Position numbers and translations under genes: made by a program
Shown here: positions 1 through 36,900 of the stretch, piece by piece
Numbering within the stretch: the stretch's first letter is position 1
How the letters are laid out: each line of letters opens with the position of its first letter
The notes under the pieces: model-generated
Told to the model about the DNA's origin: nothing
Databases searched by the model: none
Seen by the model: the letters and a program-made list of their open reading frames with translations, nothing else
Assembly: GCF_031769215.1 (NCBI RefSeq)
Contig: NW_026782257.1
Coordinates: 1 to 64,000 of the forward strand
Direction of reading: 5' to 3'
DNA length: 64,000 nt
From: Ylistrum balloti
Lineage: Eukaryota

Positions 1-3000
1 TGTCTACTGAATTACCCGTACCTACAGAAATGCCTGTGTCTACTTAAATACTTCTGTACCTACAGAAGTACTCGCACCTATAGGAAATGCCCGTATCAAC
101 AGAAGTACCCGTGTCTACAGAAATGCCCGTATCTACAGAAGTACCCATGTCTAAAGAAATGCCCGTATCTACAGAAGTACCTGTGTCTACAGGAGAACCT
201 GTACCTTCTGAATTACCCGTACCTTTAGAAATGTCCGTGTCTTCAGAAGTACCCGTGCCTACAGCAATGCACGTTTCTACAGAAGTACCTGTACCTACAG
301 AAGTACCCGTACCTACAGAAATACCCTATGTCTACTGAATTACCCGTACCTACAGAAATGCCTGTGTCTACTTAAATACTTGTACCTACAGAAGTACTCG
401 CACCTATAGGAAATGCCCGTATCAACAGAAGTACCCGTGTCTACAGAAATGCCCGTATCTACAGAAGTATCCGTGTCTAAAAAATGCCCATACCTACAGA
501 AGTACCCGTGTCTACAGGAGTACCCGTACCTTCTGAATTACCCGTACCTTTAGAAATGTCCGTGTCTTCAGAAGTACCCGTACCTACAGAAATGGTCGTG
601 TCTACTGAAGTACCCGTACCTACAGAAGTGTCCGTGTCTACTGAAGTATCCGTTACTACAGAAGTACCCGTGTCTACTGAAGTACCTGTATCTACAGAAA
701 TATCCGTTCCTACAGAAATACCCTATGTCTACTGAAGTACCCGTGTCTACAGAAGAACCCGTACCTTCTGAATTACCCGTACCTTTAGAAATGTCCGTGT
801 CTTCAGAAGTACCCGTACCTACAGAAATGGCCGTGTCTACTGAAGTACCCGTACCTACAGCAATGCCCGAGTCTACTGAAGTACCTGTATCTACAGAAGA
901 ACCCATACCTACAGAAATATCCGTTCCTACAGAAATACCCTATGTCTACTGAAGTACCCGTGTCTATAGAAGAACCCGTACCTACAGAAATACCCTATGC
1001 CTACTGATTTATCCGTACCTACAGAAATGCCTGTGTCTACTTAAATACTCGTACCTACAGAAGTACTCGCACCTATAGAAATGCCCGTATGAACAGAAGT
1101 ACCCGTGTCTACAGAAATGCCTGTATCTACAGAAGTACCCGTGTCTAAAGAAATGCCCATACCTACAGAAGTACCCGTGTCTACTGAAGTACCCGCACCT
1201 ACAGAAGTGTCCGTGTCGACTGATGTATCCGTTACTACAGAAGTACCCGTGTCTACTGAAGTACTCGTACCTACAGAAGTGCCCATGTCTACTGAAGTAC
1301 CCATACCTACAGAAATTCACGTTTCTACTGAGATACCGTTACCTAAACAAGTACTGGTACCTACTGAAGTGCCAATACCAACAGAAAAACCCGTACCTAC
1401 AGAAGTACCCATACCAACAGTAATGCCCGTGTCTACTGGAGTATCCGTACCTACAAAAATACCCGAGTCTACTGAAGTACCTGTATCAACGGAAGAACCC
1501 GTACCTACAGAAATATCCGTACCTACAGAAATACCCTATGTCTACTGAAGTACCCGTGTCTACAGGGGAACCCGTACCTACTGAATTACCCGTACCTTTA
1601 GAAATGGCCGTGTCTTCAGAAGTACCTGTACCTACAGAAATGCCTGTGTCTACTTAAATACTCGTACCTACAGAAGTACCCGTACCTATAGGAAATGCCC
1701 GTATCAACAGAAGTACCCGTGTCTAAAGAAATGCCCTTACCTACAGAAATATCCATGTCTACCGAAGTACCCGTAACTATACAAGTACTGGTACCTACTG
1801 AAGTACCAATACTTACAGAAATATCCGTACCTACAGAAGTACCCGTACCTACAGAAATCCCCGTACCTACAGAAATACCCGTACCTACAGAAATGCACGT
1901 TTCTACTCAAGTACCGTTACCTAAACAAGTACTGGTACCTACTGAAGTACCAATACCAACAGAAATACCTGTACCTACAGAAGTACCCGCACCTACAGAA
2001 ATGCACGTTTCTACTGAAGTACCTAGACCTACAGAAGTACCTGTACCTACAGAAATGCCCGTACCTACAGTAGTACCCGAACCTACAGAAATACCCGTGT
2101 CTACTGAAATATCCATGTCTAAAGAAGTACCAGTGCCTACAGAAATGGCCGTGTCTACTGAAGTACCCGTACCTATAGCAATGCACGTTTCTACTTAAGT
2201 ACCTGTACCTACAGAAGTACCCGTACCTACAGAAATACCTTATGTCTACTGAATTACCCGTACCTACAGAAATGCCTGTGTCTACTTAAATACTCGTACC
2301 TACAGAAGTACTCGCACCTATTGGAAATGCCCGTATCAACAGAAGTACCCGTGTCTACAGAAATGCCCGTATCAACAGAAGTACCCGTGTCTAAAGAAAT
2401 GCCCTTACCTACAGAAATATCCATGTCTACCGAAGTACCCGTAACTATACAAGTACTGGTACCTACTGAAGTACCAATACTTACAGAAATATCCGTACCT
2501 ACAGAAGTACCCGTACCTACAGAAATCCCCGTACCTACAGAAATACCCGTACCTACAGAAATGCACGTTTCTACTGAAGTACCGTTACCTAAACAAGTAC
2601 TGGTACCTCCTGAAGTACCAATACCAACAGAAATACCTGTACCTACAGAAGTACCCGCACCTACAGAAATGCACGTTTCTACTGAAGTACCTAGACCTAC
2701 AGAAGTACCTGTACCTACAGAAATGCCCGTACCTACAGTAGTACCCGAACCTACAGAAATACCCGTGTCTACTGAAATATCCATGTCTAAAGAAGTACCA
2801 GTACCTACAGAAATGCCTGTGTCTACTTAAATACTCGTACCTAAAGAAGTACGCGTACCTACAGAAATGCCCGTGCCTACAGAAGTACCCGCACCTACAG
2901 AGAAACCCCTACCTACACAAATGCCTGTGTCTACTGAAGTACCCGTATCTAAAGAAGTACCCGTGTCTACAGAAATGCCCGTATCTACAGAAGTACCCGT

Positions 3001-4310
3001 GTCTACAGAAATACCCGTATCTACAGAAGTATCCGTGTCTAAAGAAATGCCCATACCTACAGAAATATCCATTTCTACTGAAGTACCTGTACCTACAGAA
3101 GTACCCGTGTCTACTGAAGTACCTGTATCTACAGAAGAACCCGTACCTACAGAAATATCCGTTCCTACAGAAATACCCTATGTCTACTGAAGTACCCGTG
3201 TCTACAGAAGAACCCGTACCTTCTGAATTACCCGTACCTTTAGAAATGTCCGTGTCTTCAGAAGTACCCGTACCTACAGAAATGGCCGTGTCTACTGAAG
3301 TACCCGTACCTACAGCAATGCACGTTTCTACTTAAGTACCTGTACCTACAGAAATACCTGATGTCTACTGAATTAGCCCTACCTACAGAAATGCTTGTGT
3401 CTACTTAAATACTCGTATCAACAGAAGTACCCGTGTCTACAGAAATGCCCGGATCTACAGAAGTACCCGTAACTATACAAGTACTGGTACCTACTGAAGT
3501 ACCAATTCTTACAGAAATACCCGTACCTACAGAAATACCCGTACCTACAGAAATGCACGTTTCTACTGAAGTACCGTTACCTAAACAAGTACTGGTACCT
3601 ACTGAAGTACCAATACCAACAGAAATACCTGTACCTACAGAAGTACCCGTACCTACAGAAATGCACGTTTCTACTGAAGTACCTAGACCTACAGAAGTAC
3701 CTGTACCTACAGAAATGCCCGTACCTACAGTAGTACCCGAACCTACAGAAATACCCGTGTCTACTGAAATATCCATGTCTAAAGAAGTACCAGTACCTAC
3801 AGAAATGCCTGTGTCTACTTAAATACTCGTACCTAAAGAAGTACGCGTACCTACAGAAATGCCCGTGCCTACAGAAGTACCCGCACCTACAGAGAAACCC
3901 CTACCCACACAAATGCCTGTGTCTACTGAAGTACCCGTATCTAAAGAAGTACCCGTGTCTACAGAAATGTCCGTACCTACAGAACTGCCCGTGTCTACTG
4001 AAGTATCCGTTACTACAGAAGTAACCGTGTCTACTGCAGTACTCGTACCTACAGAAGTGCCCGTGTCTACTGAAGTACCCGTACCTACAGAAATGCACGT
4101 TTCTACTAAGTACCGTTACCTAAATAAGTACTGGTACCTACTGAAGTACCAATACCAACAGAAAAACCCATACCTACAGAAGTACCCTACCAACAGTAAT
4201 GCCCGTGTCTACTGGAGTATCCGTACCTACAAAAATACCAGAGTCTACTGAAGTACCTGTATCAACGGAAGAACCCGTACCTACAGAAATATCCGTACGT
4301 ACAGAAGTAC
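1..4310. repeat. 18-bp minisatellite (consensus ~CCTACAGAAGTACCCGTA) with nested higher-order duplications; + frame reads PTEVPV/STEMPV repeats
   Basis: 18-nt periodicity throughout. Recurrent variant blocks, e.g. GTAACTATACAAGTACTGG at ~1772, ~2441 and ~3469. Recurrent in-frame stops (TCTACTTAA) and 1-bp frameshift units (ATACCCTATGTCTACTGA) break it into short ORFs. Confidence 0.95.
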
Positions 4311-4896
4311 CCCTACAACTTGAACATTTCAAAAATATACCTCCGAAAACACCGGAGTTTTTTCACGGACAGAAAGACGGACGAAAGAAAGGCGATTGCA
4401 AAATCTATAATTCTATACTGAAATACAGAGTTTGTTTGATTCCGTGTCAGTTGGGAAGTCGTTTAGAAATACACAAAATAAGAATAAAAAACGATAAAAT
4501 ATATTTTACGTAAATAAGATTTATTAAATAAGTATATCTTACATTAAAATTCAAATTCACACGTAAGTAAATATTCTCTGTCCATTTCAACCGAATACCA
4601 ATGGCATTGTTCCTGGCTCTGGCTCGTCTCCTTAAATGGAAGGCAACCAACTTATTGCACATAGGATGCTCGCTCTAGAAACATTCCTCTATCTCGTCTT
4701 TGTCAGTTAACCATTTGTTGCTTACAAACTGGCTGTCTATAACAATATTGTTTGGAAATTAATCATTTCGTTTTCGTCATTTTGTTCAGCAAATATTTCC
4801 ATGTTAGACAGTGAGAGATAGACAGAGAAATTGAGCTTCAAGGCAGACAATGTACAAGTAGATGAGTCGAATGTCCAGGGCGGAGCATGCGGTTGC

Positions 4897-5232
4897 TTAG
4901 TTTGAAGAAGAATCGGCTTCAGCAGGTGACGGAAGAGTTGGCTGCTCAGGGTCAGCTTTAATCGGAATAGGACTTGAAGGTGGCGGTGGTGGACATGGGT
5001 AGATTGGGTCATTGTCCCTGATCCAGCAAGTGCCTCTCACGTCTCTAGTGCAAATGGGGAAGGTGAATAAGATCTTCAGTCCACGTGGCGGTGGAGCAAG
5101 TCTCAGTCGATAGTACTTCTTGCCACAAGGTACTTGAGGTGGTATACCTTCCATTTCTTCTTCGGTCATGTAAGGATGGATTTTTGGTTTCCTACGACGT
5201 TTCAGACATTTCAGGAAGGCGAAACAGCCCAT
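4897..5232 (-). CDS. Intronless 111-aa ORF (MGCFAFLKCLKRRRKPKIHP...PPPPP...), cassette copy 1; function unknown
   Basis: ATG 5232, TAA 4897. N-terminal Met-Gly-Cys plus polybasic stretch. Upstream CRE cluster and a downstream AATAAA on the minus strand (4520-4525). Differences between copies are mostly synonymous. Confidence 0.55.
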   Translation of the reverse strand: MGCFAFLKCLKRRRKPKIHPYMTEEEMEGIPPQVPCGKKYYRLRLAPPPRGLKILFTFPICTRDVRGTCWIRDNDPIYPCPPPPPSSPIPIKADPEQPTLPSPAEADSSSN

Positions 5233-5284
5233 TATTGAAGTCTTTGAAAAATCGTGCGTGTGTTTGTTGATATTCAGGATGTCA

Positions 5285-5480
5285 ATTATGACGTCATACG
5301 TAGATACATAATCTATTGTGACGTCATCAGCTATATTTTGATCTCGTCATGACGTGATTTGATGTTTTGACGAAATGAAAAACAACGCTTTTCGAAGTCT
5401 TAAAACTGTAAGGCTATAATATACTGTTATACGTGTGTCAACATTACCGTGACGGAATGCCTGTTGTCAATGACGTTCAG
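5285..5480. promoter_or_regulatory. CRE/ATF site cluster upstream of the MGC ORF (repeated at +1702 and +3404)
   Basis: Full TGACGTCA palindromes at 5289 and 5319, palindrome CGTCATGACG at 5345, further TGACG half-sites at ~5368, ~5450 and ~5471. The region is locally CpG-rich. Confidence 0.55.
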
Positions 5481-5666
5481 TTAAAGTTTTAAAGTCTCTC
5501 CACTACGAACGACTGACAGGATCTCTGGCAATCCCTACCATAGTTGTCGTTCCTTAATGCTTCACGAATCAATCTCGGCCAAAGAATTTGACTTTGTAGT
5601 GGCAACGCAATTTGACTCTGGTATGATCACAAAAGAGCTAGGACATACTGGTCTTTACCAAGAGAA

Positions 5667-6215
5667 ATGTCAGTACCTACATCAATGCCCATGTCTACTG
5701 TAGTACCCGTATCTACAGAATTACCCATATCTACAGAAGTACCCGTGTCTACAGAAGTGCCCATGTTTTCTGAGGTACCCGTGTCTACAGAAGTGCCAAT
5801 GTCTACTGAAGTACCCGTGTCTACAGAAGTGCCCATGTCTACTGAAGTAGCCGTTCCTACAGAAGTACCCGTGCCTACAAAAATGTCAGTGTCTACTAAA
5901 GTGCCCATACCTACAGTAGTACGAGTACCTAAAGAAGTACCGGTATCTACTGAAGTACCGATACCTACAGATATACCCGCACCTACAGAAATTCCCGTAC
6001 GTACAGAAGTACCCCTACAACTTGAACATTTCAAAAATATACCTCCGAAAACACCGGAGTTTTTTCACGGACAGAAAGACGGACGAAAGAAAGGCGATTG
6101 CAAAATCTATAATTCTATACTGAAATACAGAGTTTGTTTGATTCCGTGTCAGTTGGGAAGTCGTTTAGAAATACACAAAATAAGAATAAAAAACGATAAA
6201 ATATATTTTACGTAA
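5667..6215 (+). other. 182-aa open frame: PTEV repeat fused to a unique basic tail (also 7369-7917 and the tail at 4199-4513); coding status uncertain
   Basis: The minisatellite frame is open into LEHFKNIPPKTPEFFHGQ...KIYFT* in all three copies; ATTAAA follows about 10 nt after the stop. Confidence 0.25.
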
Positions 6216-6598
6216 ATAAGATTTATTAAATAAGTATATCTTACATTAAAATTCAAATTCACACGTAAGTAAATATTCTCTGTCCATTTCAACCGAATAC
6301 CAATGGCATTGTTCCTGGCTCTGGCTCGTCTCCTTAAATGGAAGGCAACCAACTTATTGCACATAGGATGCTCGCTCTAGAAACATTCCTCTATCTCGTC
6401 TTTGTCAGTTAACCATTTGTTGCTTACAAACTGGCTGTCTATAACAATATTGTTTGGAAATTAATCATTTCGTTTTCGTCATTTTGTTCAGCAAATATTT
6501 CCATGTTAGACAGTGAGAGATAGACAGAGAAATTGAGCTTCAAGGCAGACAATGTACAAGTAGATGAGTCGAATGTCCAGGGCGGAGCATGCGGTTGC

Positions 6599-6934
6599 TT
6601 AGTTTGAAGAAGAATCGGCTTCAGCAGGTGACGGAAGAGTTGGCTGCTCAGGGTCAGCTTTAATCGGAATAGGACTTGAAGGTGGCGGTGGTGGACATGG
6701 ATAGATTGGGTCATTGTCCCTGATCCAGCAAGTGCCTCTCACGTCTCTAGTGCAAATGGTGAAGGTGAATAAGATCTTCAGTCCACGTGGCGGTGGAGCA
6801 AGTCTCAGGCGGTAGTACTTCTTGCCACAAGGTACTTGAGGTGGTATACCTTCCATTTCTTCTTCGGTCATGTAAGGATGGATTTTTGGTTTCCTACGAC
6901 GTTTCAGACATTTCAGGAAGGCGAAACAGCCCAT
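6599..6934 (-). CDS. Intronless 111-aa MGC ORF, cassette copy 2
   Basis: Same ORF; versus copy 1 I see 3 synonymous changes and 1 replacement (FTFP->FTFT). Confidence 0.55.
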   Translation of the reverse strand: MGCFAFLKCLKRRRKPKIHPYMTEEEMEGIPPQVPCGKKYYRLRLAPPPRGLKILFTFTICTRDVRGTCWIRDNDPIYPCPPPPPSSPIPIKADPEQPTLPSPAEADSSSN

Positions 6935-8207
6935 TATTGAAGTCTTTGAAAAATCGTGCGTGTGTTTGTTGATATTCAGGATGTCAATTATGACGTCATA
7001 CGTAGATACATAATCTATTGTGACGTCATCAGCTATATTTTGATCGCGTCATGACGTGATTTGATGTTTTGACGAAATGAAAAACAACGCTTTTCGAAGT
7101 CTTAAAACTGTAAGGCTATAATATACTGTTATACGTGTGTCAACATTACCGTGACGGAATGCCTGTTGTCAATGACGTTCAGTTAAAGTTTTAAAGTCTC
7201 TCCACTACGAACGACTGACAGGATCTCTGGCAATCCCTACCATAGTTGTCGTTCCTTAATGCTTCACGAATCAATCTCGGCCAAAGAATTTGACTTTGTA
7301 GTGGCAACGCAATTTGACTCTGGTATGATCACAAAAGAGCTAGGACATACTGGTCTTTACCAAGAGAAATGTCAGTACCTACATCAATGCCCATGTCTAC
7401 TGTAGTACCCGTATCTACAGAATTACCCATATCTACAGAAGTACCCGTGTCTACAGAAGTGCCCATGTCTTCTGAGGTACCCGTGTCTACAGAAGTGCCA
7501 ATGTCTACTGAAGTACACGTGTCTACAGAAGTGCCCATGTCTACTGAAGTAGCCGTTCCTACAGAAGTACCCGTGCCTACAAAAATGTCAGTGTCTACTA
7601 AAGTGCCCATACCTACAGTAGTACGAGTACCTAAAGAAGTACCGGTATCTACTGAAGTACCGATACCTACAGATATACCCGCACCTACAGAAATTCCCGT
7701 ACGTACAGAAGTACCCCTACAACTTGAACATTTCAAAAATATACCTCCGAAAACACCGGAGTTTTTTCACGGACAGAAAGACGGACGAAAGAAAGGCGAT
7801 TGCAAAATCTATAATTCTATACTGAAATACAGAGTTTGTTTGATTCCGTGTCAGTTGGTAAGTCGTTTAGAAATACACAAAATAAGAATAAAAAACGATA
7901 AAATATATTTTACGTAAATAAGATTTATTAAATAAGTATATCTTACATTAAAATTCAAATTCACACGTAAGTAAATATTCTCTGTCCATTTCAACCGAAT
8001 ACCAATGGCATTGTTCCTGGCTCTGGCTCGTCTCCTTAAATGGAAGGCAACCAACTTATTGCACATAGGATGCTCGCTCTAGAAACATTCCTCTATCTCG
8101 TCTTTGTCAGTTAACCATTTGTTGCTTACAAACTGGCTGTCTATAACAATATTGTTTGGAAATTAATCATTTCGTTTTCGTCATTTTGTTCAGCAAATAT
8201 TTCCATG

Positions 8208-8636
8208 TTAGACAGTGAGAGATAGACAGAGAAATTGAGCTTCAAGGCAGACAATGTACAAGTAGATGAGTCGAATGTCCAGGGCGGAGCATGCGGTTGC
8301 TTCGTTTGAAGAAGAATCGGCTTCAGCTGGTGACGGAAGAGTTGGCTGCTCAGGGTCAGCTTTAATCGGAATAGGACTTGAAGGTGGCGGTGGTGGACAT
8401 TGGTAGATTGGGTCATTGTCCCTGATCCAGCAAGTGCCTCTCACGTCTCTAGTGCAAATGGGGAAGGTGAATAAGATCTTCAGTCCACGTGGCGGTGGAG
8501 CAAGTCTCAGTCGATAGTACTTCTTGCCACAAGGTACTTGAGGTGGTATACCTTCCATTTCTTCTTCGGTCATGTAAGGATTAATTTTTGGTTTCCTACG
8601 ACGTTTCAGACATTTCAGGAAGGCGAAACAGCCCAT
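8208..8636 (-). CDS. 142-aa MGC ORF, cassette copy 3, with a hydrophobic C-terminal extension
   Basis: The TAA of copies 1 and 2 is GAA here, adding EATACSALDIRLIYLYIVCLEAQFLCLSLTV. Confidence 0.5.
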   Translation of the reverse strand: MGCFAFLKCLKRRRKPKINPYMTEEEMEGIPPQVPCGKKYYRLRLAPPPRGLKILFTFPICTRDVRGTCWIRDNDPIYQCPPPPPSSPIPIKADPEQPTLPSPAEADSSSNEATACSALDIRLIYLYIVCLEAQFLCLSLTV

Positions 8637-8998
8637 TATTGAAGTCTTTGAAAAATCGTGCGTGTGTTTGTTGATATTCAGGATGTCAATTATGACGTCA
8701 TACGTAGATACATAATCTATTGTGACGTCATCAGCTATATTTTGATCGCGTCATGACGTGATTTGATGTTTTGACGAAATGAAAAACAACGCTTTTCGAA
8801 GTCTTAAAACTGTAAGGCTATAATATACTGTTATACGTGTGTCAACATTACCGTGACGGAATGCCTGTTGTCAATGACGTTCAGTTAAAGTTTTAAAGTC
8901 TCTCCACTACGAACGACTGACAGGATCTCTGCCAATCCCTACCATAGTTGTCGTTCCTTAATGCTTCACGAATGAATCAATCTCGGCCAAAGAATTTG

Positions 8999-10350
8999 AA
9001 TTATAATAATAAATGACTTTATTTAAGAGTCGATAACACTTTGAGTACAAGACTCTTCTAACAAGTGGTCGACAGTAAAATGTACAATATATACAACATT
9101 AAGATTACAGCATCACATATGATATAAAAATCACAAATATCACAGTAAACTAGCATAATCATGAAGGACTAAGAAGTACATCAATAAAACAAATGTAATG
9201 ATAAAGGCACATAGTGAAGAGGTATATAAAACGGTTATAGAGCGACTAATAATATAATAAAAGGACTAAATTAGCGAGGTTATGTAGGGGATACAGGACT
9301 GGTAATTAAAACAATTAATTAGCAACATTCATAAAGGTACCATATTATCTTGGGGCTAAAATAAGACTGGCATAAAAATGTGAATCTAGGGTGGTAAATT
9401 GGAGATGAATTTTTCACAATGAAATTTAAAAGTTGGTAAGGTTCCACATTGTCTGATATTTTCTGGAAGCTGATTCCACAAAGTTGGTCTAGTTTATAGG
9501 AAGGAATTTCTAATCTTTTCAGTTTTGTGTTTAGGTATGATATAGTTACCAGCAGTAGATGCCCTAGTTTGTCTACTGTGTACACTGGACATAAGCACAT
9601 TACAGTCCAAGTAGTTTGGACACAGTTTGTTAGCTACTTTACACATTAGTATACATTCATTGTAGTTCACTCTTTTGCTAAAAGGTAACCATTTGAGTTT
9701 AGTGAATAGTTCATCCCCTGATACAGAGTAGTCAGCATCCATAATTATACGTAAAACTCTTTTCTGTAATATCTCTAGTTTTTTAATATATGTCTGAGAA
9801 CAATGTCCCCAAATATTTGAACAATAATCTAGGTAAGGTAGAATGAAACAGTTAAAATAGGTGATTCTTGATGAAACAGGTAAGAACTTTTTAATTCTGT
9901 ATAACTGATATATTTTGAAATTGACCTTTTTGATGAAATCCTGGACATGTTTGTTCCAAGTAAGGGTATCATAAAATACACACACCTAGGAGTTTTTCAT
10001 GTTTAACATTTTCCAATGTAAGATCACCAGAATCAGTACATTCAATACATAATTCCTTTGCATTTTTTTGTTTTTTCTGTTTACTGCCTACAAGCATAAC
10101 TTTGGTTTTGTCTTTATTTATAACCATTTTGTTTGTTTTACACCATTTTTTTCAAATTTACAAAGTCAGTGCGCAAACATGTTTCAATAACCGTAGTACA
10201 TTTGTCAGTTTTCTGCAATGTTGAATCATCAGCATACATGTAAAATTCCCAATGTTTAGAATGAAGAGGCATGTCATTGACATCAATTAAAAACATCAGT
10301 GGCCCAAGTATTGAGCCCTGGGGTACACCAGTTGTAATTTCACAGGAATT
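8999..10350 (-). mobile_element. 5'-truncated, decayed CR1/L2-like non-LTR retrotransposon (RT domain to 3' end)
   Basis: Minus-strand translation gives NSCEITTGVPQGSILGPLMFLIDVNDMP...MYADDS. The downstream ORF 9494-9985 has the typical YFNCFILPYLDYCSNIWG...LKWLP tail. The 3' end has AATAAA and a short (TTA)n tail at ~9000; there are stops and a frameshift near 10020-10080. Confidence 0.9.
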
Positions 10351-10518
10351 ACTTTGTAGTGGTAAGACTGCTAGACTCTGGTATGATCACAAAAGAGCTA
10401 GGACATACTGGTCTTTACTAGGCGTGACTTTCATAGAACTTCTGAACCTGAATCTTTACTGGAATGGGTTTCTTACAGAATCACGTTTTCTGTCTTTATC
10501 AAGTTTTGCTTTACAGTA

Positions 10519-12482
10519 ATACCTGGTTATAATCACTGCAGTGATACCTGGTTATAATCACTATGGCAGTACCTGGTTATAATCACTATGGCAGTACCTG
10601 GTTATAATCACTATGGCAGTACCTGGTTATAATCACTACTGAGATACCTGGTTGTAATCACTGTGGCAGTACCTGGTTATAATCACTACAGTGATACCTG
10701 GTTATAATCACTATGGCGGACCTTGGTTATAATCACTATGGCGGACCCTGGTTATAATCACTATGGCGGTACCTGGTTATAATCACTATGGCAGTACCTG
10801 GTTATAATCACTACTGTGATACCTGGTTAATCACTATTGCGGTACCTGGTTATAATCACTATGGCGGTTCCTGGTTATAATAACTATGGCGGTACCTGGT
10901 TATAATCACTATGGTGGTACCTAGTTATAATCACTGTGGCAGTACCTGGTTATAATCACTACTGTGATACCTGGTTAATCACTATTGCGGTACCTGGTTA
11001 TAATCACTATGGCGGTTCCTGGTTATAATAACTATGGCGGTACCTGGTTATAATCACTATGGTGGTACCTAGTTATAATCACTATGGTGGTACCTAGTTA
11101 TAATCACTATGGCAGTACCTAGTTATAATCACTATGGCGGTACCTGGTTATAATCACTATGGTGGTACCTAGTTATAATCACTATGGCCGTACCTGGTTA
11201 TAATCACTACTGAGATACCTAGTTATAATCACTATGGCGGTACCTAGTTATAATCACTATGGCAGTACCTGGTTATAATCACTACAGTGGTACCAGGTTA
11301 TAATCACTATGGCCGTACCTGGTTATAATCACTACTGAGATACCTAGTTATAATCACTATGGCGGTACCTGGTTATAATCACTATGGCAGTACCTGGTTA
11401 TAATCACTACAGTGGTACCTGGTTATAATCACTATGGCGGTACCTGGTTATAATCACTATGGCGGTACCTGGTTATAATCGCTACGGCGGTACCTAGTTA
11501 AAATCACTATGGCCGTACCTGGTTATAATCACTATGACGGAACCTGGTTATAATCACTAATGTGATATCTGGTTGTAATCACTATGGCGGTTCCTGGTTA
11601 TAATAACTATGGCGGTACCTGGTTATAATCACTATGGTGGTACCTAGTTATAATCACTGTGGCAGTACCTGGTTATAATCACTACTGTGATACCTGGTTA
11701 ATCACTATTGCGGTACCTGGTTATAATCACTATGGCGGTTCCTGGTTATAATAACTATGGCGGTACCTGGTTATAATCACTATGGTGGTACCTAGTTATA
11801 ATCACTATGGTGGTACCTAGTTATAATCACTATGGCAGTACCTAGTTATAATCACTATGGCGGTACCTGGTTATAATCACTATGGTGGTACCTAGTTATA
11901 ATCACTATGGCCGTACCTGGTTATAATCACTACTGAGATACCTAGTTATAATCACTATGGCGGTACCTAGTTATAATCACTATGGCAGTACCTGGTTATA
12001 ATCACTACAGTGGTACCAGGTTATAATCACTATGGCCGTACCTGGTTATAATCACTACTGAGATACCTAGTTATAATCACTATGGCGGTACCTGGTTATA
12101 ATCACTATGGCAGTACCTGGTTATAATCACTACAGTGGTACCTGGTTATAATCACTATGGCGGTACCTGGTTATAATCACTATGGCGGTACCTGGTTATA
12201 ATCGCTACGGCGGTACCTAGTTAAAATCACTATGGCCGTACCTGGTTATAATCACTATGACGGAACCTGGTTATAATCACTAATGTGATATCTGGTTGTA
12301 ATCACTAGAGGGACACCTGTTTATAATCACTATGGTGGTACCTGGTTATAATCACTATTGCGGTACCTGGTTATAATTACTACAGTGATACCTGGTTATA
12401 ATCACTAGAGGGACACCTGGTTATAATCAGTACAGGGACACCTGGTTATACTCACTTTGGCGCTACCTGGTTATAATCACTA
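10519..12482. repeat. 25-bp minisatellite (GGTACCTGGTTATAATCACTATGGC), ~78 copies, with a 723-bp higher-order duplication
   Basis: Period 25 (CTATGGCAGT at 10561/10586/10611). The variant pattern starting at ~10858 recurs at 11581. Confidence 0.95.
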
Positions 12483-15212: not shown

Positions 15213-18200
15213 TCAAGGTGTCTGTGGGTTGCTATCCAGCCAGTCTTCTATCACACTAGTAATGTCATGGCGTTCCATGTCTGGATGCTGAAGGAGTTCG
15301 AGTAATTGGGCCAGAGTGAGGCGATGACTTCGACCTAGGTCCATAAGTAGCTGGTAGGCTGGCTCCTTGTGTGTGTCATAAAGGGCGATTTTATCTCCAG
15401 TGAGACCCAGTAATCCTGTAACAAAGACCAGTGAGATTTATTTTTAATTCATAACACAACATAATCAGTATTATCCATACTGGAAATAATTGGAAATAAA
15501 AACTGATTTATAAATCTTACCCCAAAAACATTAATTGCACAAAAGTTAGATGAAGTCGGTGAAGTAGTAAATATGGGTAACTGTGACCTAAATAATATAT
15601 TGGTGTAGCATTCCTCAGTGTTGTATCGTATCACCAGAGTGATACCATAAAATACTGAACTATATCCAAAACTCGCCATAATCCTGTTAAAATAACTAAA
15701 TAACCATCAGAAGACATGCATACCTCCAAGGAGCTTCCAGTCATTACCAAAGGTAGTTTCCAGGTGCAGCTTCTGGCTGATCGTCCTCAGTATCATATGA
15801 GGTAACTCGTTCATATACTTTGCCATCTGTAACAGGTTACACAACAGATTGTTATATTTCCAACATAACTGTATATTTTGATTCAGTTTGATTTAGGAAG
15901 CTATCTTTCCTCTTCAAAGAATCCATCATCAGTTTAGGGTTGAACCTCATTATCTCACATCTTATAACTTTAAGACCTGATATACTTTAAAGTATTTTGT
16001 TAGTCTCAGCCATACTTCACACTAATCATTCAAACTTTGCTTAGATTGAATACTTGGATAACTCGAAGTCTTCAAATGGTTGTACCAACTTTAAGATAAC
16101 GAGGTTTGACTGTAAAACATTCAAAACATTCAAATACTTTACTGTAGTTTTATTAATGCTATTATAACATCTTAATCTTCATTGACCATTTTCAGGACAA
16201 CAGAAAAGTTGAACTAAAATATGACACTAAACACAGATTTATTTCTCAATGGATACTGACCATGTTCGGTAGCCATATTTTGATCTTGCGATGATTGTCA
16301 AGCTTCTCGCTGCAGCATATCTGTCGTTTACTCAGGTCAAGCACATGCATGTCTGAATGGTGCTGGTTGATGAAAAGACATCTGTCCTGCAGTGGACAAG
16401 ATGGACCTAACACATACTTGACCTCTGACCCCAGTGTAGCCTTACATACTTTAAGCAACCACTGGTACAATACATAAGGCTTGGAAGCTGTTTCTGACCT
16501 GCAAACCAAAACATGTTTGAGGATGATGTAGTATAGAAAGTGTATGACAACAACTTCTGGTGTATTAAAATTTTGTAATTTTTGTTCAAATTGTATTAAA
16601 ATTTTGTCATTTTTGTTCAAACTGTATGTGGGAAAGACAATAAAACAAAGGTCTGTTCTGTTGACAGTAATATCTCAACCCTTAAATAAGAGTTTGGGTT
16701 TTGGATGGCCAAGCCTCATGCTGACCAGCCAAACTCCTACACTTGGGTAGAGATCTCCTTACCATCAGAGAAGACCATAGTAATCTATTAATCTTTGCTA
16801 GGGTACCTACCTAGCAAGGTTGATCTGTATTCGATCACGAAGCTTGTGATGGTGAAGGGTGATGTCGTATCCAAGGTGTGACAGACAACAGGAAGATGGA
16901 CCTATCATGGCAAGGTTGTGAATATCACTGCTGTTGTTGATAGCAAAGGCCAGCTGGTAAAACACCAAACTTGATGTATGCATGCGAAAGTCTACATATA
17001 AACACAGTTCTGTTGGTTCTGTTGTAGGAGGTGCTAGTGTGCTCTGGTCCGTAATCACATATGGCACTAGGTAATTCACTCCTCCTGATTCAGCCCCAAA
17101 TGATTTTTGACGGAATATAAGTCCAAATATTTCCAGGAGATGCGTGATTTTTTCAACCGAGTGGCTGTGACACTGCTGTGAGATGATATCTGTGAGGTCT
17201 TCTCCTGTTATGAGGCCAGTGCTGAGCCCCCGAACCCCTTTCTGGCGAGCCCCCTCCAAAGATTGCACTCCTTTGAGCTGTTGCAGAAAGACATTGACAT
17301 TCTGCACACAGTCCAGAAGAACTTTGGGATCAATGAACAAAAACTTATCAAGGTGTAGAACATGGGGTAAAGTCAATGGCGCCGCCTCTGAAACCATGGA
17401 AACAATTGTCAACATCAAAATATCTCCTACATGTATATCATCACTATTTGATGGCAGTTCTTTTCTCAAACAATTTTTCTAAAACATTATAAGATGAAAA
17501 ACATAAAGATTATCTGTAACTAATATATACTGTTAGGTCTAGTTGAACTATATATTGTACCTATAGCTTGTTAATATTAAAGTGGAACAAATTTCCTAGT
17601 TATATGTATATTTTTAAAGTGTAGCAGTTACCCTGACCACAATATAGTGCTATGGATCACTTGGATTAGGTTGATGATAACCGACATATTCACCTGGTAA
17701 TTAACATAATCTGGGGAATTCATAATTATTTTCAGACTTCAGGCCACCCTACATCTGTTGTTGTTATAAATCTGAAACTACAACATCTCGTAATGACTGG
17801 CCATCCCAACCCACATTTATAATACTACTAAATTTATAACGTCTGTACCCTATGTTATCCATCATACAACTCATTATCAGCAATATCATAATCTAATCGT
17901 CTCTCATGTGCGATTCACTTAATTGAATTTTGCAACTGAATTAAAATCCTTTAATCAATATTCATGGATTAGAACAAGGATAATATACACCAATTATTTC
18001 CATAGCATGATTGATAAACAAACAAGAGGCCCATATGTATCGCTTATCTGGATTTGCTTTGCTGAAATGCTTCATAAGATTAAGGAAAGGAAAATCTAAA
18101 TATCCCAATTCTCTGTCCCTTTCCAGGCATCAGTCAAACTATTCATACTTCAGACTAAATCATTCTTACAGGTTACGTAGGATTTTAAAGGAATTGCCAC

Positions 18201-21200
18201 ATTTCCAATATTGAGCCCTGCACCTCCTGCCCCATGGGGCCGGGACAAACTGTACATACAAACCCAATTCCCCTTCATCCAAGAATGCTTCAGACCACAA
18301 TTTAAGCAAAATCCATCATTCCTACTGGAGTAAGATTTTAAAGACTTTCCTCTAATCCCCTACTGGGCTCTGCCCTTCCTGCCCCATGGGGCTGAGACCC
18401 ATCATTTATACAAAATTGATTCCCTTTAAACCAAGAATGCTTCAGACCACATTTGGGCAAAATACATCATTCCTACTGGAGTAGGATTTTCAGTGTTTGC
18501 TCTTTTTCCCCTATTGAACCCCACCACTCTCACCCCATAGGACCCCAAGTAAAAGGGTTTATATAAAATTTGTTCCCCTTCCCCAAAGAATCCTTCTTTA
18601 AATAATCATAGTCAAAATCTGCTTCGTTGATCATGACTAGTAGCGAGCTGTAGAAAAAGTTGACAGACAGATGACGGACACCACGGTATGCCAATAGCTC
18701 ATGGCCCTTTGGGGCAGGTGAGCTAAAAAAAAAACAAAGTTAGCAGGGATTCACGATACCTCCCAGTCCTGCATTTCTACTTCTGATCTAAATTTGTGGT
18801 CAAGGGTGACCTTTGCCTTTAAACAGTCAAAATAATAAGGTGTAGAGAGACCTTGGTGGGACGAGTATAAATTAAATCTGTGCATGTGTTCACGGATGTA
18901 TAATCATAAACACAGGGAAGTTATAATAATCCCTTCCTTATGTAAGCTGGGGGTATAATTACTACATACTTCAACAGCAGATTATCCTGAATCTATCTGT
19001 TCAGAACGTACAGTTACATAGAGTGCTAAGTAAACTCACAGCTGATTTCATTGTGATTCATCTTTGCATTGCTACTGAAACAGACACTCGAGACTGAATT
19101 AATTTAGCAATCAGAAATGGGGTTTCCTTGTGTGTTTAAAGGAAGACTGTACTTTGAATTTACAATGAGGTTTAAAATTTATTTAAAGTTAATCACCTGT
19201 ATTTATGACACTGTAATTATGTAGATGTGAATGAAAGCAGGTTTACACTTAATGAATGTATAGTTAGATTGAATTATATCTTACTTGAAGAGAGAATTTC
19301 GCCAACATTTTTTAAGTCCGTCCAGACTATCTGCTGGAGGTCCTGACCTCCTCCTGGTACCTCGTCCTGAAACATGATTGAGAATTCTACCTCGTCAATG
19401 AACAGTTTCTGTTTGCCAGTCCTCACTGACTCAAATTGAAGCATCATTGCCACAGATGGCAACGATATCTTCTGCTTGAGTGTCATCTCACCAAGAACCT
19501 TCCAAAGTCCACGCTGAAGTCGACGACTTGCATCGCTAGTCTTGGCACCCTCAACTCCAGGGCAAAACAGTTCTGGCATGGGCACATTGTACTTCTGAAT
19601 CTGCTGGCCGAATGGCAGATAAAAAAGTGTGCGTACTTCATCTACGCCCACAGAGGCATCATTGTTCAATAATCCATAGGTCAGAATTGGGCATTCATAA
19701 CCATCAAAACACCTTATAGTATGAATCACATTTTGTAGACGCTGAATCTCTGTATGCGTAGATGTCACAACTTTTGCCCCATCGAATGTCAACACAAATA
19801 TGCTTGTCCTTGTGAATAAATACTGACAACAATGATGGAAAAATTTGTCGTCTGGGCTAAATCTATCATCAGGCATTATAAAGAACTCTACGTTGATGGA
19901 GCCTTTATGGATGAAGGAACTTGCGTCATCTCGGTCTCTAAATATGTCACTTTTTGTTAGAGATTCATTGCTGGCATGTAACCTTGAAGATGGCTCATCG
20001 TTAAGAAGATAATCAAATGAAGACCAGGATGTAAAACTTATGGCGCCCTCTCGGTCCATTCCCATGGTGCACTTAATACATTGATACAAGCCATTGTTAC
20101 CATCAGAAGACACCATGCCTGGCATTAACAGTCGAGCGAGGGCTCGAGCTTCACTACCACACAGAAACACACGTACTTTGGGCAGATTAATTGTTCTGTT
20201 TAATTCAAACAGGTCAACATTAATATCCTGTGGGTCCTGTGGATCGTTACTCTCAGACAGTGGTGTCACACGGTAGCTTTTGCCACCACGTAGTACTGGA
20301 TCACACAAGACAGGGCGTGCCTTTCCTGAGTTGTGAGATGGCAGGCGTTGATATGCCGGCATCTTGGGTGGTTCAGAGGCCAGAGGAAGACCAGGGACTG
20401 ATGGATAATGTACATCTGGGTCTGGCAAGGACGGGGTTGGAGGAAATATATTCTGGGACAGACCTTCAGGACGTTGTAGAACTATTCGTACCGTAGTCTC
20501 CTTAGCCAAGAGGTCCGGTATACTGCTGGCCTATGGACAGATAAACACTTTTAAATCAAGGCTCAATCAAATGCCAAGTTTCCTAATGTAGTGTCAGATG
20601 GTGGTCCTTACAATATCAGTGTCAGTTCTGTCACCATTTAAGGACAGAAGCTTGACTTCCAGCATAAATTTTATGATTTATGTCCTTAGGGCTATGGCAG
20701 GAATAACTTAGCCTAAGGGGCTCTTGAAGGATCAGTGGTCATGGTGATCAAAAACATAAGGTTATGACTTACCTCCCTTGGGCTCTGGAGGGGCTGCCCA
20801 TTGACAGAGCGAATCCAGTCACCAACCATGAGCTTACCATCTGCGGGTCCATCTGGCGTGATACACTCCACCAGAGTGTACAGGTCATCAGCGTTCTTAA
20901 ATTACAAACATAAGTAAGGTTAAACAAGTACAGATATATTGTACAGCTTATTCTAAACTTATTGTACAGCTTATTCTAAACTTATTCATCAGAAGTAAAG
21001 TTCATATTGAGTGATAACATTTGTTCTGGACCTAACAGAAAATTAATGAAATTCCGAGTAAGATTGCATTTACATCCTGCGGATACAGTACAGTTTTAGG
21101 AGTAGTCTGATTATATATCAATACTGACCACAACCTTTTGCTTACCTTTGACATTTTGACTTTGAGTTTGAAGCCAAAGGAGCCTCTAGCTCCACGTGTG

Positions 21201-22240
21201 AGAGACACTGTCTTTGTGATGGGATCCCAATGAATGAAGTGTGGGAACCGTAGCAAGTCATTAGCATTGGTGCTTGGTCTCACCAACAGATGGTTACTCA
21301 TGGTTGGAGGGAGAGAGCTGCATGTACGACCATTGATGTCAGTAATAGCTTGTGTCCTGCTATCTACTGTTGGAAGGGATGTAGTCCGATTTTCCTCGCA
21401 TGTACCTGACCCAAGACCAGTGCTGTCATGGAATGGTCGGCTGTCTTGTGACTGATGCCCCTCCAGTCCCTGTAAGAGAGGCTCTGACTCGACAGGGCGA
21501 CGTTTACTATCAGAACCCTTACGCATACCTGTACAGGACCGACAACTACTGTTGGACACCTGGTCCCGACTTCTTTTGTTGCTGATGCTGACTAGAGAAC
21601 AGACGATGACCTCTGTGATGGTGGTGGACAGACTTGACAAGAGTCCCCACAGTTGTGTTGGGGTAAGTGAGGTAACGTCCTGACGATTGATACACAAGAT
21701 ACGGTCAAGCAGCTGCAGGACATCACCCTGACCGAGACAGCATTCTGGTTTAACCTTAGTCACTATTGAAAAAGTCTCGTTGTTACCCTGTCAACACATG
21801 GTTTCAGCTCAATGAAAATATTGTATTATAACTTTCTTTATGGACAAAAAATAGACATAGATTTCCCAAAACAATTGTTTTTATTTTCTTTTATTTTTTT
21901 TTTTTCAAATCCATTTTTCAGAACAAGTGAAGAAGTAGTTATGTGTGTTGTGTATCAATGGGAGAAATACTGTGACAACCAATATATGAATATTTGACTG
22001 TACAAAATAACATCATCCAATTTACTGAAAATTATTACATTTTATTATAAGATAAATTGCTTAAACTATGCTGAGGTTGATGACCTTGACCTGTACCTGG
22101 ATAATGTCGACCTTGATGCCTAGTTTTCCACTGCTGGTTTTGGTGAGGCTGATGCGCCTTGTGTAGGACCAGAGTACCCGATCTGGATCGGTCTTGAGTA
22201 TTTTGATGGCTTGGTGGATGTCATTGGGGATGGCACCCAT
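15213..22240 (-). CDS. PDZ-PDZ / degenerate Roc-COR / death-domain protein, 1152 aa, 9 coding exons: 22240-22097, 21787-21146, 20895-20773, 20530-19285, 18851-18760, 17478-16811, 16498-16261, 15826-15724, 15415-15213
   Basis: All junctions are GT-AG with matching phases (0,0,0,1,0,2,0,1), 3459 nt in total, and an in-frame stop lies 3 codons before the ATG. PDZ1: RRISLTKTSSGKLGIKV...DRILCINRQDV. PDZ2: KTVSLTRGARGSFGFKL...GDWIRSVNGQP. Roc-like: HHCCQYLFTRTSIFVLTFD...PILTYG. COR: FIDPKVLLD...LLEIFGLIF...YLVPY. Death domain: NDWKLLGGLLGL...PAYQLL...LTLAQLLELLQHPDMERHDI. Confidence 0.85.
18021..18727 (-). mobile_element. Non-autonomous Helentron-like (HINE) element with ~153-bp internal tandem repeats, intronic
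   Basis: Termini AACAAGAGGCCC and TAGCTCA...TGAGCTAAAA (hairpin), an ACAG microsatellite near one end, and internal repeat CAAGAATGCTTCAGACCACA at ~18280 and ~18433. Confidence 0.65.
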
Positions 22241-33972: not shown

Positions 33973-36900
33973 ATGCCATCTGAACAAGGTCTGATCACAC
34001 TGGAAGATGTCCGAAAGGCTAGAGAGGTGTTGGCCAATAGCTCGCTTGGTGTATGCAAAACACCATTGATAAAGAATACAAACATGTTCCCAGGCCTAGA
34101 GAATGCTGAAGTGTACCTCAAACTGGAAAACATGCAGACAACTGGTAAACTGTACTTGCCTATTTAGCCTTCTTTCTCAGAGATATGTGGAATTCAACTA
34201 ATTAGTAACACAAATGCCTCATACTGGCTGTCCTTTGTGGGTGTTAATAAAAATCTTTAGAAAATTCAGTACCTGAAACACAGATTGAAATTTACTTGAA
34301 TTCAAAGCATCCTCAGGTGAATTTTATCTTATTTTCGATCTGATTAAAATACAGATTTTAATTTACCACTCAAATACTTTCCTTTCATTAAAGACAGAAA
34401 GCCCTGGAGTGGTAAATTAAGATCTAGATTTTAATCAGATTGATCCTATTTTCATCCTAGAAATACAAAAATATGCTGAAAATAATTCATTTTATTTTAA
34501 AACACCTTCCAGATCTCTCATTGAACAAAAGTTTTCTCTTTGGAGGTAATCAAATTTACTGAAAAAAACTGGAGATTGAATAGTTATAATGCCATTGTAT
34601 GTCTACAAGTTTACCTTCATTGCCTTAATTACAGGTTCTTTTAAGATCCGTGGTGTAGCTAGTCAGATGGCAATTATACCAGATGATGTTAAGAGGAGAG
34701 AGAAAAAACTAATCACAATATCTGCAGGGAATTATGGGAAGGCATTTGCTTATGCCCTAAATAAGTTGAATCTTTCTGGACTCTGTTTGATGCCTTTAAC
34801 AGCACCTTCAAGTCGAGTCCAGCTTATCAAGGTAATATGCCTCCTGACTATCTTAAACACTGACAATTGCTAAGAATGATATTATAATATCAAGTAGATA
34901 AAGCGTGATATTATTTCCCATTTCAAAAGAATTTTATGGAAGATTAATTAGTGTTAAATAGTTGTAACATAAATGGATAGTTTTAGGTGTGATATTTTAA
35001 TCATTATTGTGGTAATAGCTTGATCGAATAAGATAAAAAAAAATATATTTCATGCAATAAATGTGTAATGTTATGAAATGGTTCATAAGCACCATCTGTC
35101 TTATATAAGATAACTGTCTTTAAAAGACTGGTTGTTTACAATATACATATCAGCCATTTGTAAGAAAGTATCTAGATAGTCTCAATATCTGCCTGTATAT
35201 TGACCTCCTTTAGTAAAGACCTCATGTATATAGACATCCTTTAGTAAAGACCTCATGTATATAGACATCCTTTAGTAAAGATCTCATGTATATAGATATC
35301 CTTTAGTAAAGACCTCATGTATATAGACATCCTTTAGTAAAGATCTCATGTATATAGACATCCTATAGTAAAGCTCTCGTGTATATAGACATCCTTTAGT
35401 AAAGACCTCGTGTATATAGACATCCTTTAGTAAAGATCTCATGTATATAGATATCCTTTAGTAAAGACCTCTTGTATATAGACATCCTTTAGTAAAGATC
35501 TCATGTATATAGATATCCTTTAGTAAAGATCTCATGTATATAGACATCCTTTAGTAAAGATCTCATGTATATAGACATCCTTTAGTAAAGACCTCATGTA
35601 TATAGACATCCTTTAGTAAAGACCTCATGTATATAGACATCCTTTAGTAAAGATCTCATGTATATAGACATCCTTTAGTAAAGATCTCATGTATATAGAC
35701 ATCCTTTAGTAAAGATCTCCTGTATATAGACATCCTTTAGTAAAGATCTCATGTATATAGACATCCTTTAGTAAAGATCTCATGTATATAGACATCCTTT
35801 AGTAAAGACCTCGTGTATATAGACATCCTTTAGTAAAGACCTCATGTATATAGACATCCTTTAATAAAGATCTCATTTAGGTTAGCCTGAGGATAATTAG
35901 GTATGTCCAGTCTGAGTGGGCTAGCTGTATCTGAAACTAAGTTGTTGGCTGTCACATGTTTTCAGCATGATACAAGAACAGCTTTAAGTGGAATTCATTT
36001 ATTACCTTTTTTCATATTTTGTTTCACTTTTAAACTTTGCATTTTAAGCTCTGTTTGAAACATTTTGCACATCTAGTACAGATGCCCACCCTAAACTTCC
36101 CTTTCTTGTTATTTTTGTAGTTTTATTACGTATCTAGGAACATTATTAAGTAAACTGATCAATAATTAAGGTAAGAAACATCAGTTGGGCTTCATTTTAT
36201 TTAACTACATCGGGAAAAGAATTAAAGACTTCCAGACTTTGCCAGTATACATTGCTAGACTGCTCTGCTCTGCATGTTAAATTGATACTAAATATATATA
36301 TAAGTTTGTAATAATAACAACCATGCAAGTTAACCATCTTGCAAATGATCCCCTCCCTCTATTCCAGGGTAACAGAGGTAGATCATCTCCCCTCCAGTGA
36401 TTTACCTGTCATGGTAGAAATCCCCTCTTTCTATTCCAGAGTTACAGATTTAGAACATCTCCACACCTGTGATTTACCTGTGGTGATAGCAATCCCCTCC
36501 CTGTATTCCAGGGTGACAGAGGTAGAACATCTCCCCACCAGTGATTTAATTGTCTATATATATAGTGATGCCCTCCCGCTATTCCAAAGTCACAGAGGTA
36601 GAACATCTCCCTACCTGTGATTTACCTGTTGTGATAATGATCCCCTCCCTCTGTTCCATGGTTACAGAGGTAGAACATCTCCACACCAGTGATTTACCTG
36701 TGGTGATAGCAATCCCCTTCCTCTATTCCAGGGTTACAGAGGTAGAACATCTCCCCACCTGTGATTTACCTGTTGTGGTAGCGACCCCTCCATCTATTCC
36801 ATGGTGACAGAGGTAGAACATCCCCCCACCTGTGATTTACTTGTCATGATAGTGATACTGTCCTTTATCTCCCCACCTGTGATTTACCTGTCATGATAAT

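Follow-up and report, generated by a model that had tools for sequence, protein, structure and literature searches.

Tandem gene arrays shaped by unequal crossing-over, gene conversion and birth-and-death are characterized by near-identical copies standing head to tail, by mosaic sharing of variants and by diverged outer flanks. All of these features occur in the first 64 kb of contig C400 (NW_026782257.1) of the scallop Ylistrum balloti, a stretch referred to here as the window, in which three cassettes (W1, W2 and W3), each carrying an intronless open reading frame (ORF), are arranged in tandem. Decaying members are also present, namely W3, the copies on contigs C173 and C158, and a relic on C403. 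The locus departs from the model in two respects: a minisatellite restricted to this site and highly uneven in length forms the spacer, and dispersed copies of 1–2.5 kb occur on eight other contigs.

Dispersed duplicates are known from Drosophila. In the available part of Yang et al. 2008 (PMC2211543), 10 of 17 cases are reported to have repeats, including satellites and a simple repeat, at their breakpoints or close by, and, as appears to be the case in the scallop, the duplicates are DNA-level, dispersed and accompanied by flanks. The repeats in Drosophila are mostly DNAREP1/DINE-1 transposons, however, and many of the products are chimeric, whereas in the clearest scallop case (GA)n tracts lie at both ends and the gene remains intact. 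A second comparison is offered by DINE-1-like non-autonomous Helentrons of bivalves such as Cg_HINE, which, in the accessible portions of PMC7492417 and PMC4067079, have a GTCY microsatellite followed by a tandem array. A comparable succession, with a short GTCY tract that could be a relic, is seen in the window, but no subterminal inverted repeat, inverted repeat or 3′ palindrome of the kind described there was found in the scallop cassette, which is low in copy number and contains an ORF under selection. In four other scallop copies, moreover, the microsatellite has no array behind it.

Layout and probable exchange history of the tandem cluster

The tandem copies are quite probably those of an intronless, scallop-only ORF under purifying selection, a likely host gene at a likely ancestral locus that was multiplied by unequal crossing-over and gene conversion. 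A first-pass annotation of the window had described a 1702-bp tandem unit, and this unit is real. The period comprises a 1342-bp cassette and a 360-bp block of an 18-bp repeat, and the first two units, cassette and block together, differ at 7 of 1702 positions. Each cassette, read on the minus strand, consists of a CpG-rich upstream region, a 111-codon ORF (except in W3, where the stop codon has been lost) and an AT-rich flank with an AATAAA signal ~700 bp downstream of the ORF start. That annotation counted three units of ~99% identity, which stands for W1, for W2 and for the main part of W3: in a BLAST search of positions 4305–5660 against the window, the matches are 6007–7362 (99.6%) and 7709–9002 (99.0%). 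Cassette W3, however, is split by a fragment of a long interspersed nuclear element (LINE), beyond which lies a detached tail of 88% identity (10346–10418). The described fusion of the GGTCTTTAC end to the minisatellite is likewise found at two window cassettes, while the third GGTCTTTAC (10410–10418) abuts unique flank. Similarly, a 360-bp block follows W1 and W2, but the left neighbour of cassette 1 is a 4.3-kb array and not such a block.

A fourth copy lies on contig C580. It is oriented like the window cassettes, its GGTCTTTAC end is likewise joined to the 18-bp repeat, and the contig terminates in 8.9 kb of the 18-bp array. An exact 30-nt array pattern has 15 matches in the 648.5 Mb of genome searched, five at the start of C400 and ten at the end of C580. 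Since the array is confined to these two contig ends, the contigs are likely to be adjacent, making a four-copy, head-to-tail cluster.

Variants shared among the four copies point to exchange inside the gene. The four informative sites group the copies in all three possible ways: W1 and W2 against W3 and C580 at –296, W1 and C580 against W2 and W3 at –112, and W1 and W3 against W2 and C580 at +122/+125. The C580 copy is 96–100% identical to W1 from –330 to +370 and 85.5% identical in the 3′ flank. The unique left flank of the cluster belongs to the C580 copy and the unique right flank to W3. Such mosaic sharing combined with diverged outer flanks is the pattern expected of misaligned exchange and conversion within the gene of an older pair.

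The first-pass annotation had instead derived the amplification from the minisatellite, a model in which recombination in the 18-bp repeat, not in the gene, drove the process. All internal junctions do consist of 18-bp repeat, the C580 copy shows the same GGTCTTTAC fusion, and the array is evidently unstable, ranging in length at the locus from 360 bp to >13 kb; a better match to the block could also be hidden in the sequence of the C580–C400 gap. Nevertheless, even the closest sequenced stretch of the long array, which behaves as a spacer restricted to this locus, is only ~78% identical to the block, and both the mosaic sites and the step in identity near +370 place the exchanges inside the gene. 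A primary role for the minisatellite is consequently regarded as unlikely.

The sequence of events under exchange within the gene may be outlined as follows. An older duplication beside a gene with PDZ and Death domains would have produced a pair of copies, whose outer flanks are now 85–88% identical and between which the 18-bp array served as spacer. Misaligned exchange within the gene would then have added the internal 1702-bp units while the ORF and promoter were homogenised to ~99%. The rightmost copy, W3, would afterwards have gained its LINE insertion and lost its stop codon, and its ORF is likely decaying. In its workings, the cluster resembles a conventional tandem gene array evolving in concert within a birth-and-death family. 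The amplification mechanism is known, whereas the scallop gene family itself is undescribed; searches by accession and by topic, with supplements outside their scope, listed no paper on it.

Evidence that the array is physically present comes from contigs of public sequencing runs belonging to two studies, one run of which may be the source of the assembly. The junction peculiar to the interior of the cluster, from GGTCTTTAC into the block, is covered by contigs in all four runs examined, and at the same place the remaining two types of junction are seen as loose contig ends. Relative to a flank bin, the depth of the cassette contig is 4.0x in run X1, 3.6x in X2, 5.9x in X3 and 4.5x in X5, ratios that are not in themselves a measure of copy number. 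They fit about four copies and give a weak hint of copy-number variation. A collapse or misjoin at a contig end beside a long minisatellite could in principle mimic three copies: the cluster begins 4.3 kb from the contig end, inside a repeat array, and none of the run contigs examined spans a whole unit. Against such an artefact stand the differences among copies at shared, mosaic sites, the LINE insertion of one copy, whose junction is present in run X5, and the recovery of the internal junction in every run examined. An assembly artefact is therefore considered extremely improbable.

The probable host gene, its upstream region and its predicted product

Several lines of evidence suggest that the ORF is likely to be a working gene of the host. 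Ratios of nonsynonymous to synonymous substitution (dN/dS) were calculated for eight non-redundant intact copies, with W2, W3 and C580 omitted as near-duplicates of W1, and the C173 and C158 copies omitted as frameshifted. Over the whole ORF, dN/dS is ≤0.30 in 27 of 28 pairs, which are not independent of one another, and 0.51 in the closest pair, with synonymous divergence of up to 0.9. In the core (first 82 columns), values of 0.04–0.28 are observed in all 28 pairs, while the tail is far less constrained. Variable columns among 79 core codons number 8, 13 and 38 at codon positions 1, 2 and 3, respectively (Fisher p = 3e-5, position 3 versus 2). These figures point to purifying selection, and the dN/dS ratios and third-position excess argue against non-coding satellite DNA.

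In protein searches, homologues were found in scallops only. One is KP79_PYT11274 (OWF45251.1, A0A210Q945), a hypothetical protein of Mizuhopecten yessoensis with 73% identity over 72% of the query. Like the W1 product it is 111 aa long, with the same N-terminus, KIHPY and IYPCPPPP motifs and likely the same neighbour; it is uncharacterised, and a single model was found there as opposed to 13 copies here. A second homologue is an Argopecten-cluster protein. The cluster lies past the 3′ end (15216) of the PDZ/Death-domain gene, whose Mizuhopecten orthologue, OWF45250.1, shares a 1,390,201-bp scaffold with OWF45251.1. Since the two accessions are consecutive, the locus is likely ancestral. The first-pass annotation had called the gene young, which is not borne out; of the origins it offered, that of a host gene multiplied by unequal exchange is favoured by the purifying selection, the scallop homologues with likely synteny and the mosaic variants.

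Its description of an intronless ORF with an AT-rich 3′ zone and a CpG-dense upstream region rich in cAMP response elements (CREs) agrees with the present results. Each upstream region contains two full TGACGTCA sites, compared with one in the window beyond 12 kb, and two such sites arose in 1 of 2000 dinucleotide shuffles of positions 5233–5532. The observed/expected CpG ratio is 1.7 in the upstream region versus 0.3–0.4 in the rest of the window. The proximal TGACGTCA is retained in 10 of 11 copies examined and the second, 30 bp further upstream, in seven of the 11. Alignment of the copies reveals a third site near –120 on the opposite strand, TGACGTG(A/G), which is presumably an XBP1/ATF6-type motif. 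No TATA box is present within 150 bp upstream. A 34-nt pattern drawn from this region occurs 11 times genome-wide, always immediately upstream of an ORF copy. Taken together, a conserved CRE cluster lies near the start, and the upstream region is a likely promoter. In one copy, the region also folds into a 70-bp hairpin, which outperforms all shuffles in only one of ten copies and was rejected as the end of a mobile element; for this reason, the three sites are taken as factor-binding sites and not as a structural end.

The W1 product is a basic protein of 111 aa (20% proline, isoelectric point 9.1) with a net charge of +7 over its first 20 residues. Conservation across genera extends to Gly2, Cys3 and three motifs (KIHPY, APPPRG-like and IYPCPPPP), and Gly2 and Cys3 are invariant in 10 of 10 sequences. 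N-myristoylation typically requires Gly2 and a small residue at position 6, with a nearby Cys and a basic cluster. By these rules, the N-terminus suggests lipid anchoring at the membrane. In this respect the protein resembles the small, N-terminally acylated, polybasic membrane adaptors, with which it shares the Gly2-Cys3 start, the net +7 and a polyproline stretch; it has no sequence homology to them, and its residue 6 is Phe. No family match was obtained in Pfam, PHROGs (0 of 10 members) or Atlas, and the sequences in PDB yielded only two chains at E 0.8, attributable to proline-rich noise. A profile search of 1.84 billion representatives returned four matches, i.e., the Mizuhopecten protein and three long proteins aligned over polyproline. 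Finally, the invariant KIHP resembles the (K/R/Q)VxP ciliary signals, among which KVHP is the ciliary signal of polycystin-1 in the accessible text of PMC3172256; in the scallop motif, which lies close to the N-terminus, Val is replaced by Ile, so that the likeness is a lead only.

Based on these features, transcription of a short RNA would be induced by CREB/ATF-type factors, and the encoded protein, predicted to be largely disordered, would be held at the membrane by N-terminal lipid (Gly2/Cys3/Cys9) and the basic cluster while offering its polyproline to SH3-, WW- or EVH1-type partners. That it acts as an inducible adaptor in signalling is speculative, with roughly even chances of being right. 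The reading adopted, of a proline-rich adaptor inducible through basic leucine zipper (bZIP) factors and tethered to the membrane, is thus weakest at the step of function.

A number of points weigh against the preferred reading of an ancestral host gene multiplied by exchange. With respect to the cluster, the C580–C400 join was inferred, and the two junction pieces listed have 30 letters on their left side, one short of the 31-letter threshold. The array next to the C580 junction is no match for the 360-bp block, so the history of the spacer must be more complex than a single duplication. The adjacency is favoured by Pecten maximus, in which orthologues of a kelch gene on C580 and of the PDZ gene share one record (46,316,487 bp); in Mizuhopecten, however, the two are on different scaffolds, and the Argopecten models for kelch, PDZ and the ORF-bearing protein are spread over three records that differ in length. 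The kelch gene was accordingly rejected as evidence of left-side synteny, as the two genes share a record in Pecten only. With respect to the gene, adjacency in Mizuhopecten was taken from accession order rather than from DNA, the tail of the Mizuhopecten protein is nearer to that of the C105 copy than to W1, and its model carries an accession in GenBank but none in RefSeq. While NCBI annotates both neighbouring genes, the protein collection contains none of eight copies looked up; the family thus appears to be unannotated in this genome. As for the product, Phe6 departs from the usual myristoylation consensus, and the AlphaFold model is uninformative (predicted local distance difference test score of 44, predicted template modelling score of 0.20).

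Dispersed copies and rival origins

A search of the unit against the same genome, as the first-pass annotation had proposed, revealed that it is not confined to a single locus. DNA and protein searches gave 15 matches representing 13 ORF copies on nine contigs, 11 of which are free of frameshifts; the C173 and C158 copies are each split by a frameshift into two matches. Three copies lie in the window, one on C580 and nine elsewhere. A decayed relic at C403:1301973-1302133 (L015) contains stops and frameshifts and has a motif nearer to that of the Mizuhopecten protein than to those of the window copies. An older tandem group at C400:261931-267047 (L033, L034) consists of two copies of ~89% identity with a repeated 757-bp flank, together with a stray 117-bp upstream piece matching the start of the C173 copy.

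The dispersed copies share ~135–1400 bp of upstream DNA and 600–1600 bp of downstream DNA, extending past AATAAA, without A-tails at their ends. The sharing of promoter and 3′ flank in the absence of A-tails argues for copying at the DNA level rather than by retroposition, and a retrogene family is not supported, as at least 135 bp upstream, including the CRE sites, is part of the common DNA. Ectopic, DNA-level duplication of 1–2.5-kb segments would be the likely source of these copies. Some of them end at simple repeats. For example, C425:2071368-2073945 and C609:262484-265337 have a common 2.5-kb gene-bearing segment, flanked on either side by (GA)n tracts in both places, and the C569 copy shares the downstream tract. 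Of the collapsed boundaries, 4 of 11 lie ≤100 bp from a tandem repeat, compared with 7.7% of background positions (binomial p = 0.007); the list was compiled after the data had been seen, from repeat-masked BLAST with an unmasked recheck for C425, C609 and C569 only, and of its 21 boundaries 10 had been merged or removed, namely the four of the cluster, the two of C105 and duplicates. These endings hint at repeat-guided duplication of some of the dispersed copies.

Such observations raise the alternative of a small mobile unit, non-autonomous and equivalent to the cassette, copying itself into simple-repeat tracts, its ORF being selected for helping the unit to persist. Consistent with this, ten sites have only 1–2.5 kb around the gene in common, all five (GA)8+ tracts in the 210 kb examined are copy ends of the C425/C609 kind (none occurs in the 64-kb window), and tandem relics exist at C400:262-267 kb as well. 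However, the four repeat-near boundaries all belong to one clade (C425, C609, C569 and C158), with none in C173, C126 or C400b/c. The ends vary between copies, with no common termini or inverted repeats among them and no inverted or direct 8-mers common to the two 150-bp ends of the cassette, and no convincing target-site duplication was found at C173. Copy number is also low, and the locus is apparently stable across genera. A mobile unit of this kind is accordingly judged distinctly unlikely. Equally doubtful is a fuller version, in which a self-contained 1–2.5-kb cassette with a triple bZIP-site promoter, a predicted membrane-anchored protein of 110 aa and a polyadenylation signal would repeatedly colonise scallop sites by templated copying into micro- and minisatellite tracts, would lack both transposon ends and its own enzymes and would be kept by selection at each site, possibly as a selfish or germline-acting unit.

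The first-pass annotation had also considered the cassette as cargo of a DNA virus, a Polinton or a Helitron-like element; such cargo could have been inserted recently or domesticated in the distant past. The compact intronless layout, the CpG-rich CRE cluster, the restriction of homologues to scallops and the promoter hairpin of one copy would all be compatible with such an origin, and an ancient viral source could be missed by the searches made. A GTCY microsatellite lies at the 3′ end of group-A copies, as in oyster Helentron-type elements in the portion of PMC7492417 available; in these copies, seven in number, the tract is short and degenerate, and it could be a relic. Nevertheless, the comparison with viral sequence yielded no relative in viral or metagenome contigs or in PHROGs, and no large element is common to the copies within 10 kb, the shared flank never exceeding 2.5 kb. 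Eight of the long frames listed near the copies were scanned with Pfam, and none of these is viral. The 133-bp end has seven genome matches, all of them gene copies, in a search that skips very common words. No Helentron-type palindrome or stem-loop was detected at the cassette end, whose folds of –4 to –6.7 kcal/mol have no shuffle control. A Helentron-type element therefore fails on subterminal inverted repeats, end stem-loop and high-copy shared ends, and an origin as cargo is judged very unlikely.

Two features near dispersed copies were also recorded: a nine-unit 228-bp repeat reading as polyubiquitin (L044, C173:161790-163840), 6 kb from the C173 copy, and a reverse-transcriptase element (Pfam RVT_1; L047, C158:1690578-1692426) ~3 kb upstream of the C158 copy.

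Features of the window and significance of the family

Coordinates of the cluster and its neighbour are collected in Table 1. The W1 3′ flank is common to the C580, C400b/c and C173 copies at 85–90% identity. The label of the LINE fragment is presumed from its reverse-transcriptase motifs; the single 82-aa piece scanned has no Pfam match.

Table 1. Positions of the tandem cluster, its component parts and the adjacent gene in the window.
Feature	Position	Strand	Remarks
18-bp tandem array	4–4316	.	239 units; spacer between C580 copy and cassette 1; likely runs on into the 8.9-kb array ending C580
Cassette 1 (W1)	4317–5658	-	3′ flank, ORF, promoter and upstream DNA as far as GGTCTTTAC
W1 3′ flank	4340–4896	-	AT-rich; AATAAA at 4520–4525; short GTCY microsatellite near 4366–4388
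W1 ORF	4897–5232	-	Intronless, 111 aa; MGCF start, basic cluster, KIHP, conserved core, polyproline, variable Pro-rich tail
W1 conserved upstream region	5233–5367	-	TATA-less, likely promoter; TGACGTCA at 5289–5296 and 5319–5326; third site TGACGTG at 5350–5356
360-bp repeat block	5659–6018	.	18-bp repeat, between W1 and W2
Cassette 2 (W2)	6019–7360	-	ORF 6599–6934, 111 aa, one aa change versus W1
Second 360-bp repeat block	7361–7720	.	Two differences versus first block
Cassette 3 (W3), main part	7721–9002	-	ORF 8208–8636; stop lost, read-through to 142 aa; KINP instead of KIHP
LINE fragment, presumed	9003–10345	-	1343 bp, 5′-truncated, within W3 upstream DNA; remnant of the C-terminal part of a reverse transcriptase, broken by stops and frameshifts, and a short (ATT)n tail
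W3 distal upstream end	10346–10418	-	88% identical to W1/W2; runs into unique flank
PDZ/Death-domain gene	15216–22240	-	Eight exon matches; synteny anchor; ends ~5 kb from cluster

The 18-bp array (window 4–4316; C580:1824161-1833057) translates as [PS]TE[VMI]P[VI], now with stops in 14 of 235 units and with 19-nt units. Its variation by codon position is 0.24/0.09/0.22, i.e., mostly at positions 1 and 3. The array may be a decayed mucin-type coding repeat, with CpG decay accounting for part of the pattern. Near its left end, it is split by a 3.5-kb insertion with broken transposase-like frames (C580:1821961-1822726, or L032:1961-2726), which show a likeness to motifs of the Transib/RAG type and gave no match in Pfam. 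Plus-strand frames of 182 aa across the repeat blocks (5667–6215 and 7369–7917) are regarded as by-products of the 18-bp unit. No Rfam match was found in 4200–10600.

The product of the neighbouring PDZ/Death gene is an uncharacterised protein of 1091 aa with PDZ and C-terminal Death domains, 88–90% identical across scallops in the exon searched. Further along the window, an exon with a pyridoxal-phosphate enzyme domain (Pfam PALP) lies at 34580–34873 on the plus strand, among many minisatellite arrays. In Argopecten irradians, the homologue of the scallop ORF forms the first ~130 residues of a 923-aa peroxidase model (XP_069122459.1, P0003), in which a signal-peptide-like stretch of the peroxidase part begins near residue 190. 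A peroxidase fusion was rejected for the present family, with no peroxidase match ≤10 kb from any copy examined, and the Argopecten model is likely an annotation join or lineage-specific.

In summary, the 13 copies represent a conserved, scallop-restricted gene family, for which no domain, fold or paper was found and which has apparently been missed by annotation. The locus serves as a compact record of a gene pair becoming an array, in which the flanks are old, the cores have been converted, a minisatellite forms the spacer and one copy is dying. While the mechanism is ordinary, the finding would carry greater weight if the family proved to be strongly inducible or germline-specific, or if simple repeats steer the placement of new copies.

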